Positions 5,108 through 55,550 of a DNA stretch of 55,550 bases are shown in pieces (the stretch's first letter is position 1; each line of letters opens with the position of its first letter). The notes under the pieces were generated by a model. The model did no database searches, was not told where the DNA came from, and saw nothing but the letters and a program-made list of their open reading frames with translations. The translations under genes were made by a program, and so were the position numbers. Origin of the DNA: Escherichia phage CSP1C; sequence record PQ202980, one strand, 5' to 3'.

Positions 5108-5133
5108 GGGGACATTTATGTCCCCTCTTTTTT
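5108..5133 (+). terminator. rho-independent terminator after major capsid gene
   Basis: GGGGACAT..ATGTCCCC stem followed by TCTTTTTT. Confidence 0.7.
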
Positions 5134-6140: not shown

Positions 6141-6278
6141 TCATGGAAATGAGCCATAGACAATATGTGTTGTGGCTCCTCCGACGTAATAGAAAACGGC
6201 GTCAAGAAGACGCCGTTTCTGTTCCTGAAGAAGAGCTCCCGCCACTTATCCCTACAACCATCGCAATGAGGAAGAAAG

Positions 6279-17547: not shown

Positions 17548-17578
17548 AACCCCGCTTCGCGCGGGGGTTTCTTTTAGT
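17548..17578. terminator. bidirectional rho-independent terminator between tail fibre and lipoprotein genes
   Basis: CCCCGC ttcgc GCGGGG stem followed by GTTTCTTTT; convergent genes on both sides. Confidence 0.65.
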
Positions 17579-17891: not shown

Positions 17892-18062
17892 ATGGCAACT
17901 CGTTTACGTGGTACTTTAGTTGATGGTTTAAATAAACCAATTGTCAACGCTACAGTTGCGCTTTTAGCAAAAGGGAATAGCTTATTGGTATTGTCCGGCA
18001 GTGAAGCTATCTTTAAAACAAGTGCAACCGGAACAACCTGTAGAAGCTCGCGAACATATTAG
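17892..18062 (+). CDS. small ORF with transthyretin-like N-terminal signature (possible gene remnant)
   Basis: 56 aa starting MATRLRGTLVDGLNKPIVNATVAL; SD GGGAGA; another open frame continues to about 18165. Confidence 0.3.
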   Translation: MATRLRGTLVDGLNKPIVNATVALLAKGNSLLVLSGSEAIFKTSATGTTCRSSRTY

Positions 18063-18655: not shown

Positions 18656-18683
18656 AGAAAAGGGGCAAACGCCCCTTTCTTTA
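18656..18683. terminator. bidirectional rho-independent terminator
   Basis: AAAGGGGC aaac GCCCCTTT stem with flanking A/T runs between convergent genes. Confidence 0.65.
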
Positions 18684-19353: not shown

Positions 19354-19390
19354 TCCTTAAAATACCCGCGCGAACGCGGGTATTATTTTA

Positions 19391-20232: not shown

Positions 20233-20261
20233 TATATTAAAACAGACCCGCGAAGGGTCTG
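20233..20261 (-). terminator. terminator-like hairpin after polymerase gene
   Basis: CAGACCC gcgaa GGGTCTG stem followed on the minus strand by TTTTAATAT. Confidence 0.45.
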
Positions 20262-29061: not shown

Positions 29062-29090
29062 GAAAAAGAAAGCGCCTCATTGGGCGCTTT
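29062..29090 (-). terminator. rho-independent terminator
   Basis: AAAGCGCC tcattg GGCGCTTT stem followed on the minus strand by TTTCTTTTTC. Confidence 0.6.
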
Positions 29091-29115
29091 CATTATAACG
29101 TGATATGTTTTGATA

Positions 29116-33499: not shown

Positions 33500-33527
33500 A
33501 GAAAAATAAGCCGTCTTTCGACGGCTT
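33500..33527 (-). terminator. rho-independent terminator
   Basis: AAGCCGT ctttcg ACGGCTT stem followed on the minus strand by TTATTTTTC. Confidence 0.55.
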
Positions 33528-33552
33528 AGGGACACTACAGAGGGAGGTTAAC

Positions 33553-41018: not shown

Positions 41019-41050
41019 CAATAAAGGGCCGAAAGGCCCTTTATTTATTT
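41018..41050. terminator. bidirectional rho-independent terminator
   Basis: AAGGGCC gaaa GGCCCTT stem with flanking T-tracts on both strands; convergent genes. Confidence 0.7.
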
Positions 41051-50736: not shown

Positions 50737-51002
50737 TTACCGCTCAAGAAGCTCGTGAATTAAGTGATAAGCTGGATATTAGCGAAGATATTGAATTTAT
50801 CAGTGATAGCATTCGCGTAGCTGCTACAAAGGGATACAATAAAGTATCACTTGTAACTAAATACGGGGCTGTTGGCAATCCTGACACTCAAGACCCAACC
50901 ATTATGAAGATTGCTAAATGGTTAGCTGATTCTGGTTTTACTGTCCTATACTATCCTTCAATGGACCAACGGGATAACGAGCGTACTGAGGTGGCCTGGT
51001 GA
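50733..51002 (+). CDS. hypothetical protein
   Basis: 89 aa ORF overlapping upstream stop. Confidence 0.4.
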   Translation: MITAQEARELSDKLDISEDIEFISDSIRVAATKGYNKVSLVTKYGAVGNPDTQDPTIMKIAKWLADSGFTVLYYPSMDQRDNERTEVAW

Positions 51003-51069
51003 TTGAAGAAAATATCAAATATTGGAAAGGTTTTATTGACGAAATGCTGAAACCATTGGAGAAGAAATA

Positions 51070-51462
51070 ATGCTATTAGTCGTCACCGGAGGGCGTAATT
51101 TTAAACATGTAGAGTATATTTATGCTCAACTTGATAAGTTGCATACGCAAAGAAGGATAACCACACTTCGCCACGGTGACGCTTCCGGTGTTGACCGGAT
51201 TTGCGCACATTGGGCAGAGCGCAACGGTATTAAGACAGAAGCGTTCCCTGCGCCGTGGGGCAATCTTTCCTTACCAAATACCAAGATACGGTATAACGCC
51301 AGAGGTGCTTATAATGCACAAGCGGGCGCTTACCGTAATCAATTAATGCTGGATACTGATCCTAGACCAGATCACGCTATTGTGTTTCCGGGCGGAGCTG
51401 GTACTATGGATATGTACAGACGGATTAAAGCATCCGGTATCCCTTACACATTAGCGGAGTAA
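51070..51462 (+). CDS. SLOG/DUF2493-like Rossmann-fold protein (predicted nucleotide-binding)
   Basis: Gly-rich motifs VVTGGRNF, HGDASGVDRI and FPGGAGTMDM in LOG/DprA-like order; SD GGAGAAG. Confidence 0.45.
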   Translation: MLLVVTGGRNFKHVEYIYAQLDKLHTQRRITTLRHGDASGVDRICAHWAERNGIKTEAFPAPWGNLSLPNTKIRYNARGAYNAQAGAYRNQLMLDTDPRPDHAIVFPGGAGTMDMYRRIKASGIPYTLAE

Positions 51463-51465
51463 ATA

Positions 51466-51936
51466 ATGGCTGACGTTAAAACTATTGTTGATGCAATGGA
51501 CGAATCCAAAGACTGCCAACTGAAGAAGTCGTTTGAAGTAAAACAGGTTACAGAGACTCAGTTAATAGCAAGATTCGCACGTCATTGCGGCTTGGGGCGC
51601 GGGAAAGACTGGAACGGGCTTATTGTTATGCCTACATCACAGATCCTTGTCTATGTCCGTAATGTTGTAGAAGATGTTCTGCGTCTTCAGGTTGAAATCG
51701 GTGATGTAGAAATTAACATGACCGCGAGCTCTACCATTGTGGTTAAATGGCAGACGGGCGAGACACTTCGTTTAGAAGCGTGCCATTGCGCTAAGAGCTT
51801 GCATCACCTACGCGGTTGTCACTACCAGTTTGTTGGCTTTGTGCATCTACAAGGGTTAAGCGGGCGTACGGCGATGGTAGCGCGTTTGCTGCTGCGTCCT
51901 TATAATAACGAGCCGGAAGTCATATACGAGGCATAA
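51466..51936 (+). CDS. hypothetical protein with Cys/His cluster
   Basis: 156 aa; ACHCAKSLHHLRGCH suggests metal binding. Confidence 0.4.
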   Translation: MADVKTIVDAMDESKDCQLKKSFEVKQVTETQLIARFARHCGLGRGKDWNGLIVMPTSQILVYVRNVVEDVLRLQVEIGDVEINMTASSTIVVKWQTGETLRLEACHCAKSLHHLRGCHYQFVGFVHLQGLSGRTAMVARLLLRPYNNEPEVIYEA

Positions 51937-51937
51937 G

Positions 51938-52360
51938 ATGATTAAACATGTCAAACAGCCAACTTTAAATACATGCGTTTCTGCGTGTTTGGCAATGATC
52001 CTTAATAGACCTGTAGAAGAAGTAATTGCGGAATTTCATGATCGATATTACAACAACTGGGAAATAACAATTTCCGAATATTTAGTACAAAACAATGTTG
52101 ACCACATCTGTTCTGTGGGCGGTGGGCGTGAGACTATATACATGGGTGGTTTGTTTTTGTGCACTGTCCCAAGTCTCAATGTTCCTGGAGCACTGCATCA
52201 GGTTGTGATCGATACAACTAATCACAAGTTTATTGTACATGACCCAATTAAAGGTTGGGAAGGTAAAAAGTTCTACGTTGGCCCGGATCAAGATCCTGAA
52301 CAGCCAGGAGCATTTATCATTCATACTTGGGTTAAAGACGTTGAGATTGTGCTTAATTAA
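51938..52360 (+). CDS. papain-fold cysteine peptidase, C39-like
   Basis: N-terminal KQPTLNTCVSACLAMIL matches the C39 Q-x5-C..ACLAMI signature; downstream HQVVID and IVHDP give candidate His/Asp. Confidence 0.5.
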   Translation: MIKHVKQPTLNTCVSACLAMILNRPVEEVIAEFHDRYYNNWEITISEYLVQNNVDHICSVGGGRETIYMGGLFLCTVPSLNVPGALHQVVIDTTNHKFIVHDPIKGWEGKKFYVGPDQDPEQPGAFIIHTWVKDVEIVLN

Positions 52361-52422
52361 AAACCTTGCTATCAGATAACCCTTCATTGTATTGTGTACC
52401 CATCGAATAAGAGGGGTACACA

Positions 52423-52608
52423 ATGACCAAACTATACGCCGGATTGTTTTTATTTGCGACGTTAATGTTCGCTGGGCTTTATACCTATACAGTAGTCGAA
52501 CAACCTTCCACGGTTATCCGAATCTTTGCAAGTACAGGGCTTTGTATCTGTCTTATTCTATTTGTTTTATGCATTGTTATTATCCAAGACCAAAGGAAAA
52601 TTAAATGA
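52423..52608 (+). CDS. small membrane protein (2 TM)
   Basis: 61 aa with two hydrophobic helices; stop overlaps next ATG (ATGA). Confidence 0.45.
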   Translation: MTKLYAGLFLFATLMFAGLYTYTVVEQPSTVIRIFASTGLCICLILFVLCIVIIQDQRKIK

Positions 52609-53069
52609 CCACAATTGCGTTTGATGGAAAAGTATTAGCTGCGGACCGTGGAGTTATGCGCGGGGAAGTTGTGACTGCATATAAGAAAGTTCACAGCGTA
52701 AATGGGCATCGTGGACGGTTTTTACTGGGTCTGTGCGGCCTTACAGCATTCACCGATCAAGTGCTGCGTTATTTTAATAGCGCTGAACCTGTTAAGTTCC
52801 CAGATATTAAAGTTTACAGCAAAGATGATGATTACGGGCAAACTTGCGGTCTTGCGGTTACTCCGGAAGGTACTTGCCATTTTATTTACAATGATGGTAC
52901 GTTGAGCGAGCCTATGCTGGACGGCTGGGGGTCGGATGGTAGCGGTTGTGTGTTTGCTGCGGGAGCTCTGGCTGCTGGTGCAAGCGCACGCGAAGCTATC
53001 GAGCTAGCAATCAAGCATACCACATGTGCATTTCTTGGCGTTGATACAATATCGTTTGAGGGTTTTTAA
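52605..53069 (+). CDS. Ntn-hydrolase, proteasome beta / HslV-like peptidase
   Basis: N-terminus MTTIAFDGKVLAADRG (Thr directly after Met) and later GSDGSG motif fit the proteasome/HslV fold. Confidence 0.5.
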   Translation: MTTIAFDGKVLAADRGVMRGEVVTAYKKVHSVNGHRGRFLLGLCGLTAFTDQVLRYFNSAEPVKFPDIKVYSKDDDYGQTCGLAVTPEGTCHFIYNDGTLSEPMLDGWGSDGSGCVFAAGALAAGASAREAIELAIKHTTCAFLGVDTISFEGF

Positions 53070-53330
53070 ATGACTACATTCAGTCACCTGATCCCACCTG
53101 CTTATCACAGCAAGGTAGTTGACCACGGGACGCATGTTGTAATTGGTGGCGAAATCTTTATCACAGATAACGAGGAAATCGCCATTGCAATTATTGACAG
53201 CACTCAGCATGACTTTATGGTTATCCTGCAACACGAACCCGATAACTTCACTTTTTACTCCAGCTACGGGGTCGATAAAGGTGGAAAAAGCCTTGTTAGC
53301 TGGTACATTAGCGAGTGGTTTGACGGGTAA
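53070..53330 (+). CDS. hypothetical protein
   Basis: 86 aa; ATG directly after upstream stop, SD GAGGG. Confidence 0.45.
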   Translation: MTTFSHLIPPAYHSKVVDHGTHVVIGGEIFITDNEEIAIAIIDSTQHDFMVILQHEPDNFTFYSSYGVDKGGKSLVSWYISEWFDG

Positions 53331-53412
53331 TCTCCTTAGATCAATTCTCCTTGCGCCGTATCAAGTTTCTCTGTTACCCTTGAGTGGTTCATGTCAAGCG
53401 GAGGAACTCGAT

Positions 53413-53850
53413 ATGGCACTTCAACCTCGTGGTATTCGTAATAACAATCCAGGCAATATTCGCTGGGGTGACAATTGGCAGGGCTTAGTTCCTGCTGATA
53501 AGCGGACCGATAAATCTTTTGCTCAATTCACGCAACCGATTTACGGCATCCGCGCTCTGGCGAAAGTCCTGACCAACTACACCAAACGTGAAGGCTTACC
53601 CAATGTGGGTAAGAAAAACATCGACACTGTACGTGAAATTATCTCTCGCTGGGCTCCGCCTAACGAAAACGATACGGAAGCGTATATTCGTTCTGTTGCC
53701 AAAGCAATTGGTGTTGAACCTAACGATCCAATCAATGTCTTCGACAAGACGATAATGTCAGGTTTGGTAAAAGCAATCATTCGTCATGAAAATGGCATGA
53801 TGCCTTACACGGACGACGTAATCAACCGCGCTATTGCAATGGTAATTTAA
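53413..53850 (+). CDS. putative endolysin / cell-wall hydrolase (family unassigned)
   Basis: 145 aa from ATG 53413 (SD GGAGGA) with N-terminal RNNNPGNIRWGDNWQG motif; assignment is positional (immediately upstream of holin and spanins). Confidence 0.4.
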   Translation: MALQPRGIRNNNPGNIRWGDNWQGLVPADKRTDKSFAQFTQPIYGIRALAKVLTNYTKREGLPNVGKKNIDTVREIISRWAPPNENDTEAYIRSVAKAIGVEPNDPINVFDKTIMSGLVKAIIRHENGMMPYTDDVINRAIAMVI

Positions 53851-53855
53851 CTGAT

Positions 53856-53877
53856 GGGGCGTCAGCCCCTTTTTATT
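53856..53877 (+). terminator. terminator/attenuator-like hairpin between endolysin-like gene and holin
   Basis: GGGGC gtca GCCCC followed by TTTTTATT. Confidence 0.5.
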
Positions 53878-53886
53878 GGAGGGAAC

Positions 53887-54231
53887 ATGTTCAACTCATC
53901 AAACGAACATTGGGCAGTTCTAGCGGGGTTTGCTCTGATTTCCCTCATTGGGGGAGCTCTCGGTTACGTCATGCGTACGATTGACGCTGGTAAGAAGGTA
54001 CGGATAAGCATTGCATGTCTTGAAGGTTTATCCGCCGCGTTCTTTGGCGTTATAATGTACGCGATCTACAGGGAGTTTAATATCAGCCTTTGGTTCGCTT
54101 TTGGCCTTGCTGGCCTATTCGCTTGGGCGGGTTCACGTGCTACGCTAAAAGCTCTAAAGTCGCTTCTAGCATCGCGGACAGGGATCAAACTCGACTCAGA
54201 GGACTGCAAACATGAAAATGATTCTAAATAA
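53887..54231 (+). CDS. holin (3 predicted TM helices)
   Basis: 114 aa from ATG 53887 with SD GGAGGG; three hydrophobic helices and charged C-terminus. Confidence 0.6.
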   Translation: MFNSSNEHWAVLAGFALISLIGGALGYVMRTIDAGKKVRISIACLEGLSAAFFGVIMYAIYREFNISLWFAFGLAGLFAWAGSRATLKALKSLLASRTGIKLDSEDCKHENDSK

Positions 54232-54688
54232 CTTCTTCAGTTTTATAAAAGCTAAACCGCGTCTATTTATCGAGTACCTGATGATTGGCGCGGTGGTGTT
54301 TCTATGCGGAGTGGCCGCTTACCTGTGGTCACAAAACGAGCTTAACAAATCAAATTTAAGCTTGGCTGAAGAACGTTTAACCGTTGTGGAGAAGGACAAT
54401 GCTAAGCTGAGCGAAGCTGTTGTATTTCTTGCTGCACAAAGGGAGAAAGATACGGACTCTTTCAAGAAACTAACTTCTGCAATTCAGGACGAACAACATA
54501 ACCACAAGTTGCTTCAGGACAAGTTGCAGACACTGGAGAAAAGCAATGCCGACGTCAAAGCTTATCTTAACGAGCGTATTCCTGATGATTTGCGCAGGTT
54601 GCTCGACGCAGACTCAACCTCCCCCAGCTCCACAGATAGTGAAGGTAAGACTACCCGCGCATCTACTGGTGGAATGTCGGGAAGTTGA
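54212..54688 (+). CDS. i-spanin (Rz-like)
   Basis: N-terminal TM helix then coiled-coil-rich periplasmic domain; overlaps the o-spanin gene. Confidence 0.6.
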   Translation: MKMILNNFFSFIKAKPRLFIEYLMIGAVVFLCGVAAYLWSQNELNKSNLSLAEERLTVVEKDNAKLSEAVVFLAAQREKDTDSFKKLTSAIQDEQHNHKLLQDKLQTLEKSNADVKAYLNERIPDDLRRLLDADSTSPSSTDSEGKTTRASTGGMSGS

Positions 54689-54851
54689 GAAAATTCCTTT
54701 GGTTTACACAAGAGATATTATCCGACGTTTACAGGATACAGAAACTGCTCTGACTGAATGTAAGCTAAGGGTTAAGGAAATCATACGCTATGAAGCTGAA
54801 AATGTTTCGCTTGATTTTGTAGGATCAAGCAATTATATTCAGCCTAAATAG
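54546..54851 (+). CDS. o-spanin (Rz1-like outer-membrane lipoprotein), partly embedded in the i-spanin gene
   Basis: Signal peptide ending LMICAGC followed by Pro-rich QTQPPPAPQ; starts in the +1 frame inside the i-spanin gene. Confidence 0.55.
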   Translation: MPTSKLILTSVFLMICAGCSTQTQPPPAPQIVKVRLPAHLLVECREVEKIPLVYTRDIIRRLQDTETALTECKLRVKEIIRYEAENVSLDFVGSSNYIQPK

Positions 54852-54871
54852 CAATAAGAAGGGGAGCTTCC

Positions 54872-55429
54872 ATGAACGGGGCAAGTCAAGAGCAATATGA
54901 TCGTGACTGGACGAACTATATCCAGTATGCAAATAGCTTGTCCGCTGACGAGATGGCAATACGTGACAAAGTTGTTGCTGAGTATATGTTCGACTACAAT
55001 TGGACTAACGCTTGCATGAGATGCGGGTTCAATGCTATGTTTGCACAGGAGCTTGGCCAACGCTTTGCCACGGACTGTTACGTTCGATGGAAGCTCAAGG
55101 AGATTGAAAGATCCCGTGTTCAACGTACTTCTGAGCAAGCTAACATTGAAGCAGACCTAGAGCGTCAGCATATCATTGAAGCATTAAAACGTGAAGCTCA
55201 TTATACAGGACCGGGATCTTCTCAAGCTGCTAGAGTAGCCGCATTGGGCAAGCTTGCACAAATTTATGATTTGGATGCTCCCAAGAAGGCTAAAATTGAT
55301 GTTACTAACAGAGGCGGCGTAATGATAGTCCCTGCTGTAGCAAATATTGACGAATGGGAAAAAACTGCATCCGAGTCTCAACAACGACTAGTTAAAGAGA
55401 CTGAAGATGGAGCTAAACCGACAACCTGA
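54872..55429 (+). CDS. terS: terminase small subunit
   Basis: 185 aa ORF with SD AAGGGGAG directly upstream of the terL N-terminus; assignment positional. Confidence 0.5.
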   Translation: MNGASQEQYDRDWTNYIQYANSLSADEMAIRDKVVAEYMFDYNWTNACMRCGFNAMFAQELGQRFATDCYVRWKLKEIERSRVQRTSEQANIEADLERQHIIEALKREAHYTGPGSSQAARVAALGKLAQIYDLDAPKKAKIDVTNRGGVMIVPAVANIDEWEKTASESQQRLVKETEDGAKPTT

Positions 55430-55433
55430 TAAC

Positions 55434-55550
55434 ATGCCGCGAGTAGTCTGGAAGCCACATCCAGGTTCACAGACGCTCGCTTTATCCTGCCCTGCTGATA
55501 CCATTTTATACCACGGTACTCGCGGTCCTGGAAAGACGGACTGCCAGCTT
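55434..55550 (+). CDS. terL: terminase large subunit, N-terminal 39 codons (3' partial; continues at position 1)
   Basis: ATG 55434; product MPRVVWKPHPGSQTLALSCPADTILYHGTRGPGKTDCQL with Walker A; reading frame ends exactly at window end. Confidence 0.6.
   Translation, partial: MPRVVWKPHPGSQTLALSCPADTILYHGTRGPGKTDCQL

Follow-up and report, generated by a model that had tools for sequence, protein, structure and literature searches.

A probable four-gene lysis cassette with an Enc34-type endolysin, predicted to be soluble, in Escherichia phage CSP1C

Which proteins of Escherichia phage CSP1C lyse the host cell, and which of them attacks the cell wall? A preliminary description of the phage DNA (record PQ202980; the complete stretch of 55,550 nucleotides is referred to here as the window) had placed a classical Gram-negative lysis cassette at positions 53413–54851, with an endolysin candidate that it left unclassified. 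We examined this locus by searches against Pfam, PHROG, PDB, and NCBIfam and by comparison with related phages. The open reading frames lie where the preliminary description had put them, and each gene assignment was supported. All four proteins have a significant family match in these searches, and all four frames are intact in 10 relatives with 90–99% nucleotide identity. With a probability of about 0.9, we read the locus as a canonical three-step Gram-negative lysis cassette that consists of genes for an endolysin, a holin, an i-spanin, and an o-spanin (Table 1).

Table 1. Features of the CSP1C lysis locus (positions in the window)
Feature	Position	Strand	Basis
Endolysin Shine–Dalgarno GGAGG, 8 nt 5' of ATG	53400..53404	+	read from sequence
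Endolysin, 145 aa, Enc34-type (PHA02564) single catalytic domain	53413..53850	+	phrog_873, PDB 7Q47
Upstream in-frame ATG, annotated CSP1 holin start (125-aa form)	53854..53856	+	not conserved
Terminator-like hairpin and T-run	53856..53877	+	terminator scan, folding, conservation
Holin Shine–Dalgarno GGAGG, 4 nt 5' of ATG 53887, conserved in relatives	53878..53882	+	read from sequence
Holin, 114 aa, class I, LydA-type, holin superfamily III	53887..54231	+	PF16083, phrog_785
i-Spanin, 158 aa, Rz/LysB-like; 20-nt overlap with holin stop	54212..54688	+	phrog_89, phrog_5975
o-Spanin, 101 aa, LysC-like predicted lipoprotein, 8 Pro	54546..54851	+	PF23793, NF038368, phrog_456

The cassette as such is already known: it holds the lysis genes of the published phage CSP1, and the family of its endolysin has previously been described and crystallised. 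CSP1C is the published deletion mutant of the E. coli/Cronobacter phage CSP1 and forms clear plaques (Kim & Ryu 2025, PMC13577005). Both phages are Seuratvirus-like siphophages of the Queuovirinae with Gram-negative hosts. The window aligns with CSP1 throughout, with a single 4,672-bp deletion at window position 18022 that is flanked by a 14-bp repeat (GTGCAACCGGAACA); the published deletion coordinate is the same (PMC13577005). By nucleotide comparison, positions 53300–55000 are 100% identical to the CSP1 record (KY982929), and the cassette is thus the same DNA as CSP1_033 to CSP1_030 of that record. The paper already names an endolysin (CSP1_091) and a holin (CSP1_092), which served there, co-expressed in E. 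coli, as a lysis system (Kim & Ryu 2025, PMC13577005). We equated these two genes with the frames of the window by their order in the genome, by the coordinate system common to both, and by the names of the products in GenBank. One "spanin" (CSP1_093) is counted in the paper, with no description of the o-spanin; the sections and term searches covered here contain no assignment of the endolysin to the Enc34/PHA02564 family and no mention of the hairpin discussed below (PMC13577005).

The protein encoded at the 5' end of the cassette had been proposed as the endolysin by its position and noted for an RNNNPGNIR motif. This proposal is borne out by homology: the protein matches phrog_873 "endolysin" (E 1.2e-62, PHROG search) and, over residues 5–130, the Enc34 endolysin's catalytic domain (PDB 7Q47_A, E 2.1e-33, phmmer against PDB); it also corresponds to CSP1_091, and the gene is annotated as "endolysin" in KY982929. 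The motif is indeed present, and the N-terminal motif RGIRNNNPGNI is conserved with Enc34-type enzymes. By these sequence matches, the protein is an endolysin and a predicted peptidoglycan glycosidase of the Enc34/PHA02564 type. The label "unclassified" holds for Pfam, which gave no match at E ≤ 0.1, and for NCBIfam, which gave no match, as the family is absent from both libraries; it does not hold overall, since the Enc34 type (PHA02564) is known from published descriptions, activity assays, and a crystal structure (PMC8943055, PMC7143992). Membership in the PF11860 muramidase family with its Glu-Glu catalytic pair (Pae87/AP3gp15/N4 gp61 type) finds no support in the Pfam search at this threshold. 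We also considered and rejected the identification of 7Q47 as the Pae87 muramidase (PF11860): the Pae87 structures are 7Q4S and 7Q4T, which are unrelated, and 7Q47 is Enc34 ORF39.

Residues W80, Y91, and E126 are invariant across 73 distinct sequences and align with W79, Y95, and E131 of the Enc34 enzyme, where they form part of the groove as Trp, Tyr, and catalytic Glu (PMC8943055). On the strength of this alignment, we predict E126 to be the catalytic acid and the other two to be substrate-groove residues. Compared with Enc34 ORF39 and M4Lys, the CSP1C protein has an insertion of eight residues (LPNVGKKN), which it has in common only with the Seuratvirus and Nonagvirus relatives. A single-sequence AlphaFold2 model of the protein has a mean pLDDT of 41, too low for use, and from the sequence match to 7Q47 alone we infer an all-helical fold like the α-lobe of lysozyme.

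Which bond such an enzyme would cleave is left ambiguous by the data on its family. The Enc34 enzyme's catalytic domain (ORF39deltaC) lyses outer-membrane-permeabilised E. coli, Pseudomonas, and Hafnia, and its structure resembles both GH73 and GH23 (PMC8943055). The catalytic domain of M4Lys (M4LysdeltaTMD) degrades purified peptidoglycan to products that indicate N-acetylglucosaminidase and possibly also endopeptidase activity (PMC7143992). In two later papers that cite the Enc34 work, we found no characterised stand-alone member of the family, and a literature search found no paper that describes PDB entry 9VVP.

The catalytic domain and its setting, a lysis cassette with overlapped spanins, are common to CSP1C and the Enc34-type endolysins such as ORF39 of Hafnia phage Enc34 (PDB 7Q47; PMC8943055). 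The architecture of the full-length proteins differs. Enc34 ORF39 and M4Lys of Salmonella phage BSPM4 carry a C-terminal transmembrane domain and are lytic without a holin (PMC8943055, PMC7143992), and a C-terminal transmembrane segment is also present in the 221–241-aa relatives. In contrast, the CSP1C endolysin has the Enc34-type domain without this C-terminal one- or two-helix extension: it ends 19 residues past the catalytic Glu, and no KD19 hydropathy peak reaches 1.4 at any point in the protein. Since the C-terminal membrane anchor is missing, the CSP1C endolysin should be soluble and dependent on a holin that forms holes.

The adjacent holin fits this role. The preliminary description had read three transmembrane segments in this protein, and three hydropathy peaks were found (KD19 2.05, 1.90, and 1.42) at approximately residues 11–29, 42–60, and 64–82, followed by a charged C-terminal tail rich in Lys, Arg, Asp, and Glu. 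The protein matches PF16083 above the cut-off (E 4.2e-10, 40 bits vs 28.4, Pfam) and phrog_785 "holin" (E 3.5e-24, PHROG). TMHMM analysis of the CSP1 holin likewise gave a class I protein with three transmembrane domains; lysis of CSP1 is triggered by DNP, and CSP1_021 binds the CSP1 holin (PMC13577005). Through PF16083, where it scores above the gathering score, the CSP1C holin is related to LydA of phage P1. Kim & Ryu also draw the parallel to LydA and its antiholin LydB, in that a class I holin is bound by an antiholin with a single transmembrane segment (PMC13577005). Unlike in P1, the antiholin genes of CSP1 are not adjacent to the holin gene but lie about 30 kb away, and in CSP1C they are deleted. 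A further difference is that the P1 endolysin has been described as a SAR endolysin (PMC7143992), whereas that of CSP1C is predicted to be soluble.

With these assignments in hand, other identities for the lysis enzyme can be weighed. The 145-aa protein might be a virion-associated peptidoglycan hydrolase that acts at entry rather than a lysis endolysin. In several relatives, the orthologue is labelled "V: structural protein P5" or "capsid and scaffold protein", and the Enc34-type domain also occurs inside virion proteins (T7-like gp16, tape-measure, tail injection, and PM2/NO16-type P5 proteins). These labels, however, go back to PHA02564, provisionally named "V virion protein" in CDD. The CSP1C protein is a free-standing domain with no structural-protein part; its gene lies directly 5' of the holin and spanin genes, far from the morphogenesis genes, and, on many phage contigs of unrelated origin, stand-alone homologues adjoin holins together with i-/o-spanin pairs, embedded in lysis cassettes across many lineages. 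Together with the service of the CSP1 endolysin alongside the holin in E. coli (PMC13577005), this makes a virion role very improbable. Even less credible is an endolysin that associates with the membrane and lyses cells without the holin, which would then be no more than a pinholin-like timer. This behaviour is modelled on the nearest characterised relatives, since Enc34 ORF39 and M4Lys are toxic or lytic alone by way of their C-terminal transmembrane domain; yet versions of both without this domain are non-toxic (PMC7143992, PMC8943055), and the CSP1C protein stops just after the catalytic domain with no hydrophobic segment. Furthermore, the lysis suppression of CSP1 is overridden by over-expression of the holin, not by over-expression of the endolysin (PMC13577005), and three transmembrane segments are typical of the class I large-hole holins.

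The preliminary description had also envisaged that another frame, such as that of a C39-like peptidase, could prove to be the true endolysin. Two proteins encoded upstream come into question, a C39-like protein of 140 aa (51938–52360) and an HslV-like protein of 154 aa (52605–53069). The former shows a weak Pfam match to Peptidase_C39 over residues 3–24 (E 0.058, 13.7 bits vs a cut-off of 22); the latter matches phrog_1040 "peptidase HslV family". Both matches point to protease folds of a cytoplasmic type rather than to cell-wall hydrolases. For the C39-like protein in particular we found no support: its Pfam score is below threshold, it has no relative in the PDB, and phrog_4049 carries no assigned function. 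In view of the overwhelming evidence for the protein encoded at 53413, the chance that either of these proteins is the lysin is negligible.

The start of the holin gene called for closer inspection. In the CSP1 annotation, this gene begins at ATG 53854. Comparison of CSP1 with 10 relatives revealed an ATG at this position only in CSP1, ECP2304, phiG7, and RCIP0359; the codon is ACG in the other seven, six of which (WildeMaa, CAjan, SLUR76, Greed, slur01, and one IMG/VR contig) also have an in-frame TAG in the loop of the hairpin, as is characteristic of the CAjan/slur01 subclade, while a second IMG/VR contig has the ACG without the TAG. No Shine–Dalgarno sequence was seen 5' of ATG 53854. The start at 53887 is also the one chosen in the annotations of BASEL, phiG7, and CAjan. 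Hence, the conserved start of the holin is probably ATG 53887, and the annotated one lies 33 nt too far upstream; this re-examination corrects the likely start codon. A dual-start holin as a conserved feature can be rejected, as the upstream ATG is replaced by ACG in 7 of the 10 relatives.

Between endolysin and holin, a hairpin with a T-run had been noted, and it is present with a conserved stem: GGGGC-GTCA-GCCCC at 53856–53869 is followed by TTTTTATT at 53870–53877. The element begins 6 nt past the endolysin stop, within the 36-nt gap between this stop and the holin start and 5' of the holin ribosome-binding site. The stem consists of five G:C pairs, closes a loop of 4 nt, and is followed in the transcript by U5AUU; the folding energy of the stem-loop is −10 kcal/mol. 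With its G+C-rich stem-loop, direct U-run, location at a gene end, and placement on the transcribed strand, it has the sequence features of a Rho-independent terminator. Folding of the entire segment 53835–53900 gave a z-score of −0.04, and the small hairpin alone is notable. A lenient terminator scan of 51000–55550 found no excess (3 sites vs 4.1 in shuffles). Under a strict rule that demands a perfect G+C-rich stem with a T-run behind it, 13 sites occur across the whole window versus 0.4 in shuffles, which places the hairpin in a real class of elements. All 11 sequences compared have the identical stem, with no compensatory changes in it; they vary at three positions, which lie in the loop, in the T-tract, and 1 nt 5' of the stem. 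An Rfam search of 52300–55550 returned one snoRNA match at chance level (E 0.21).

These observations suggest that the hairpin is most probably a leaky terminator or attenuator, or a stabiliser of the 3' end. Since the interval from the hairpin to the holin start is too short to hold a promoter, expression of the holin, spanin, and terminase genes should need read-through or a promoter farther upstream. Alternatively, the hairpin could control translation like the sdi stem-loop of phage lambda, by choosing between holin starts at 53854 (125 aa, antiholin-like) and 53887 (114 aa). In CSP1, ATG 53854 is in frame and 3 nt past the endolysin stop, where reinitiation is possible; the hairpin stem begins with the G of this codon, and the 11-residue extension of the holin holds one Arg. 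The comparison with the relatives argues against this role, as the stem is kept in all of them regardless of the ACG and TAG replacements described above. The missing Shine–Dalgarno sequence also speaks against it, as does the T-run behind the stem, which fits a terminator in a window that holds a clear class of such gene-end elements. We consider such translational control improbable. A wider proposal, which we regard as improbable, is that the hairpin and U-run form a regulatory attenuator that sets the ratio of endolysin to holin and, along with it, how strongly spanins and terminase are expressed and when lysis occurs; in the CSP1 subclade, the T-for-C change that creates ATG 53854 could add an Arg-bearing, extended, antiholin-like holin by termination-reinitiation, comparable to S107 of lambda.

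The final two genes would provide the spanins. As the preliminary description had proposed, the i-spanin combines a transmembrane segment with a probable coiled coil: a single hydropathy peak (KD 2.25) marks an N-terminal segment at about residues 18–39, and residues 41–122 are free of Pro and Gly and follow a heptad-like register with 62% hydrophobic residues at the a/d positions, according to a crude heptad count. Beyond this helical periplasmic domain follows a variable tail rich in Ser and Thr. The protein matches phrog_89 "Rz-like spanin" (E 1.4e-11) and phrog_5975 (E 1.6e-53, PHROG). Its match to the LysB model TIGR03495 (E 3.4e-8, NCBIfam) reaches 33.9 bits and is far below the curated cut-off of 92.75. 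By these scores, the protein is Rz/LysB-like and not an equivalog of LysB from phage P2. It contains no periplasmic Cys, unlike Rz of lambda. The gene is annotated as i-spanin in the BASEL Seuratvirus genomes, and KY982929 names its product "putative lysis regulatory protein".

The o-spanin had been recognised as a Pro-rich lipoprotein whose gene begins within that of the i-spanin, in a different frame. The searches agree with this assignment, with matches to PF23793 LysC over residues 14–85 (E 8.3e-12, 45.3 bits vs a cut-off of 27, Pfam), to NF038368 P2_Rz1 (29.2 bits vs a cut-off of 27, NCBIfam), and to phrog_456 (E 1.5e-14, PHROG). The signal peptide comprises K5, a hydrophobic core, and the lipobox-like sequence LMICAG|C19 with Ser at +2; A17-G18-C19-S20 is invariant in 10 relatives, and Pro is abundant in the N-terminal portion of the mature protein. 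With Cys at −3, the lipobox fails the strict PROSITE pattern PS51257 on inspection by hand. We infer from the sequence that C19 is lipidated. A GGAG lies 7–8 nt 5' of the start codon.

The first 143 nt of the o-spanin gene overlap the i-spanin gene, and the remaining 163 nt extend past the i-spanin stop. The pair, which had been described as "embedded/overlapping", is consequently overlapped (P2 type) and not embedded. In 10 relatives, both frames are open and the o-spanin frame is full-length, with fewer changes in the o-spanin frame than in the i-spanin frame across the overlap. The public records examined either truncate the full-length 101-aa o-spanin reported here or leave it unnamed; KY982929, for example, annotates only a fragment of 50 aa, as hypothetical. 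As with lysB/lysC in P2, the o-spanin gene begins within the i-spanin gene, out of frame with it, and runs on past its end. The o-spanin passes the curated cut-offs of both P2 LysC models, and the i-spanin resembles LysB in its N-terminal transmembrane segment and helical periplasmic domain. The pair differs from LysB/LysC in the low LysB score and lack of a periplasmic Cys in the i-spanin, and in the Cys at −3 of the o-spanin lipobox.

The three-step logic of holin, soluble endolysin, and two-component spanin is common to the CSP1C cassette and S-R-Rz/Rz1 of phage lambda, and both cassettes adjoin terminase genes. A Pfam search with the N-terminal extension of TerL from CSP1C gave nothing informative. 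Unlike in lambda, the gene order in CSP1C is endolysin-holin-spanins, a terminator-like hairpin separates the endolysin and holin genes, and the spanin genes are overlapped rather than embedded. The endolysin folds also differ: R of lambda, a lytic transglycosylase, has a fold like that of T4 lysozyme.

On the basis of these assignments, lysis by CSP1C may proceed as follows. The single-domain endolysin, which has no signal sequence, SAR, or transmembrane segment, would accumulate in soluble form in the cytoplasm while the class I LydA-type holin gathers in the inner membrane. Once triggered, the holin would form holes large enough for the endolysin to pass through to the cell wall. The i-spanin as a type-II membrane protein and the o-spanin as an outer-membrane lipoprotein would bridge the periplasm, and after the wall is gone they would fuse the inner membrane with the outer one. 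An antiholin module encoded elsewhere in the genome restrains the holin of wild-type CSP1; deletion of this module in CSP1C explains the clear-plaque phenotype.

The endolysins of CSP1 and the Seuratvirus phages are now linked to the Enc34 (PHA02564) family. The Enc34-type domain is carried by 794 phage records, and many GenBank records mislabel these endolysins as "structural protein P5", "capsid and scaffold protein", or "hypothetical". The comparison also suggests that one catalytic domain serves in two set-ups, unanchored and predicted to depend on a holin in CSP1C, and anchored and holin-independent in the Chi-like phages. This natural comparison could help to study how M4Lys- and Enc34-type enzymes cross the membrane.

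Four tightly packed ORFs on the plus strand (53413–54851) encode an endolysin, a holin, an i-spanin and an o-spanin (see the table). The cassette is 100% identical to that of Cronobacter phage CSP1 (KY982929) and 90–98% identical to those of about 33 Seuratvirus-like coliphages. Both the ORF coordinates and the hairpin had been described accurately in the preliminary description, and the interpretation as a lysis cassette is supported. On the minus strand of the cassette we found only short ORFs (<70 aa), none with support.

Features of the lysis cassette, its flanks and hairpin sites (window coordinates)
Feature	Coordinates	Strand	Remarks
140-aa protein	within 51938–53330		weak N-terminal C39-peptidase-like motif, phrog_4049
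61-aa protein	52423–52608		two hydrophobic segments
HslV-family peptidase-like protein	52605–53069		phrog_1040, E 7e-32
86-aa protein	within 51938–53330
Endolysin	53413–53850	+	145 aa; GGAGG 8 nt upstream
Stem-loop	53856–53869		folds at -10 kcal/mol
Holin	53887–54231	+	114 aa
i-Spanin	54212–54688	+	158 aa; 20-nt overlap with holin stop
o-Spanin	54546–54851	+	101 aa; starts within i-spanin gene, other frame
Terminase small subunit	from 54872		follows o-spanin; phrog_5334, E 1e-59
Other strict hairpin plus T-run sites	5108–5125, 6197–6215, 17550–17566, 18661–18676, 19362–19383, 20245–20259, 29068–29091, 33507–33528, 41021–41044
Deletion junction	18022–18035		between two GTGCAACCGGAACA copies

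The first protein of the cassette had been named the only endolysin candidate by position and left unclassified, which fits with the lack of any Pfam or NCBIfam match. Its candidacy is borne out by PHROGs (phrog_873 "endolysin", E 1.2e-62) and by the best PDB match, 7Q47 (E 2.1e-33, residues 5–130), the endolysin domain of Hafnia phage Enc34 described in 2022 (PMC8943055). Hence "unclassified" holds for Pfam and NCBIfam, but the protein is a member of the Enc34/PHA02564 family, which was already known. Muralytic activity of the Enc34 domain has been shown on outer-membrane-permeabilized E. coli, P. aeruginosa and H. alvei; Glu131 is its catalytic residue, and its groove contains Trp79 and Tyr95 (PMC8943055). 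The domain of the homologous endolysin M4Lys from Salmonella phage BSPM4 degrades purified peptidoglycan to products that indicate N-acetylglucosaminidase activity (PMC7143992). We aligned 73 distinct sequences, made up of 70 IMG/VR relatives, Enc34, a virion protein from the PDB and the CSP1C protein itself. Residues W80, Y91 and E126 of the CSP1C protein align with Trp79, Tyr95 and Glu131 of Enc34 and do not vary across this set, and the RGIRNNNPGNI motif is also mostly invariant.

We found this domain encoded by 268 IMG/VR stretches and 794 phage records in four settings: as stand-alone endolysins (Seuratvirus, Nonagvirus, D3112/DMS3-like Pseudomonas phages and SSU5), as endolysins with a C-terminal membrane anchor (Chi-like phages), as the N-terminus of gp16 internal virion proteins (T7-like phages) and in PM2-type P5. 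Weaker PHROGs matches likewise locate the domain within tail-injection, tape-measure and head proteins. In many unrelated contigs, stand-alone relatives have a holin and an i-/o-spanin pair as neighbours. Orthologues of the endolysin appear in public records as hypothetical, as "capsid and scaffold protein" or as "structural protein P5"; the presence of the same domain in PM2-type P5 accounts for the misleading "V: structural protein P5" labels.

The CSP1C endolysin is of the stand-alone form. Unlike the Enc34 endolysin and M4Lys, which are lytic without a holin by virtue of a C-terminal transmembrane domain, it ends 19 residues past the catalytic Glu and contains no hydrophobic stretch. It should therefore build up in the cytoplasm and rely on a hole-forming holin. 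The CSP1 experiments of Kim & Ryu 2025 (PMC13577005) agree with this expectation: E. coli BL21(DE3) was lysed with holin and endolysin together as the lysis system, lysis suppression was overcome by over-expression of the holin but not of the endolysin, and DNP triggered lysis.

The proposed three-transmembrane holin is supported by matches to PF16083 (LydA, holin superfamily III; 40 bits, cut-off 28.4) and phrog_785 (E 3.5e-24), and by three hydropathy peaks followed by a charged C-terminal tail; Kim & Ryu 2025 make the same call by TMHMM (PMC13577005). The CSP1 record starts the holin at ATG 53854 (125 aa), which no Shine–Dalgarno sequence precedes. Only the CSP1 subclade has ATG here; the codon reads ACG, with an in-frame TAG after it, in CAjan, slur01, WildeMaa, Greed and SLUR76, and one compared sequence of the other subclade has ACG and no in-frame TAG. 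The conserved start is ATG 53887, preceded by GGAGG and annotated as such in BASEL, phiG7 and CAjan. ATG 53854 lies in frame, 3 nt past the endolysin stop, and could extend the holin by 11 residues (MGRQPLFIGGN, one Arg).

The 36-nt gap between endolysin stop and holin start contains GGGGC-GTCA-GCCCC, then TTTTTATT, then the holin Shine–Dalgarno sequence. All 11 related sequences share an identical stem; their three variable positions fall in the T-tract, in the loop and immediately 5' of the stem. Since none of them shows compensatory changes in the stem, this is conservation, not covariation. A lenient terminator scan of the local region gave no excess (3 sites vs 4.1). A strict rule (perfect stem, at least four G:C pairs, then at least five T in six) returned 13 sites on both strands of the window vs 0.4 in shuffles. 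Of the strict sites examined, several are located where genes end, such as behind the capsid gene, and three loci, with hits on both strands, resemble bidirectional terminators; the set presumably represents the phage's intrinsic terminators. The distance from the hairpin to the holin start codon is too short for any promoter. Judging from sequence, the hairpin may act as a leaky terminator or attenuator, or as a stabilizer of an mRNA 3'-end. As the upstream ATG is missing from most relatives, a start-codon choice like that of lambda sdi is unlikely to be the role for which the hairpin is conserved.

The i-spanin shows the predicted architecture: a single transmembrane segment at the N-terminus (KD peak 2.25) and a putative coiled coil (an 82-residue Pro/Gly-free stretch with heptad bias), followed by a variable Ser/Thr-rich tail. 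It matches phrog_89 "Rz-like spanin" (E 1.4e-11), and the LysB model TIGR03495 well below cut-off. Public records call it "lysis regulatory protein" or hypothetical. The Pro-rich o-spanin, correctly placed by its ORF coordinates, exceeds the curated thresholds set for PF23793 LysC and NF038368 P2_Rz1. Its N-terminus (K5, hydrophobic core, A17-G18-C19, Ser at +2, Pro-rich start of the mature protein) contains a probable lipobox, graded no higher because the Cys at -3 is atypical. All ten relatives examined retain the full-length ORF and an unchanged LMICAGC motif, and the 143-nt overlap has accumulated fewer changes in the o-spanin frame than in the i-spanin frame. The pair had been called embedded/overlapping; only the latter applies, since the o-spanin ends 163 nt past the i-spanin stop. 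The genes are thus overlapped as in P2 lysB/lysC, in contrast to the embedded lambda type. The o-spanin is underannotated: CSP1 carries a 50-aa "hypothetical" fragment, BASEL phages a 62-aa "o-spanin" without signal peptide, and some public annotations omit it. Kim & Ryu 2025 count one "spanin" (PMC13577005).

Relatives with about 66% endolysin identity, such as the Nonagvirus-like IMG/VR sequence L006 (1878–3496), keep the endolysin–holin pair, with 36% identity in the holin. Behind the holin they carry an ORF of no more than 80 aa, whose match to our i-spanin is confined to the N-terminal transmembrane part (E 4e-5), and a different pair of transmembrane protein and overlapping ORF, candidate spanins, lies upstream of the endolysin. 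This pattern looks like spanin replacement with a remnant left behind.

Four small genes lie directly upstream of the cassette (51938–53330), and for these we found no evidence of a lysis function. Downstream, the TerL ORF has an apparent start at ATG 55434 and runs in frame across the window ends (55434–55550 joined to 1–1416). The CSP1 record starts TerL 117 nt downstream, and the 39 extra N-terminal residues include a Walker-A-like GTRGPGKT. With this start, the T to C change from CSP1 to CSP1C at 60,173 (window 55501), reported as intergenic (PMC13577005), would be TerL Ile23Thr.

In an alignment of the whole window with CSP1 we found just one deletion, of 4,672 bp, with the repeat GTGCAACCGGAACA at its boundary (18022). 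In Kim & Ryu 2025, the mutant CSP1C forms clear plaques and has a genome of 55,550 bp, and its deletion starts at 18,022 with the same 14-bp repeat (PMC13577005). Because deletion, length and repeat agree, the window is the complete CSP1C genome in the published coordinate system. The deletion takes out the tail-fibre/antiholin module (CSP1_020–022 in PMC13577005), and the lysis cassette here is therefore the de-repressed one. It is an ordinary lysis cassette, already published and used experimentally, to which our analysis adds at the level of annotation only: the family assignment of the endolysin, the full o-spanin, the holin start and a conserved terminator-like hairpin.
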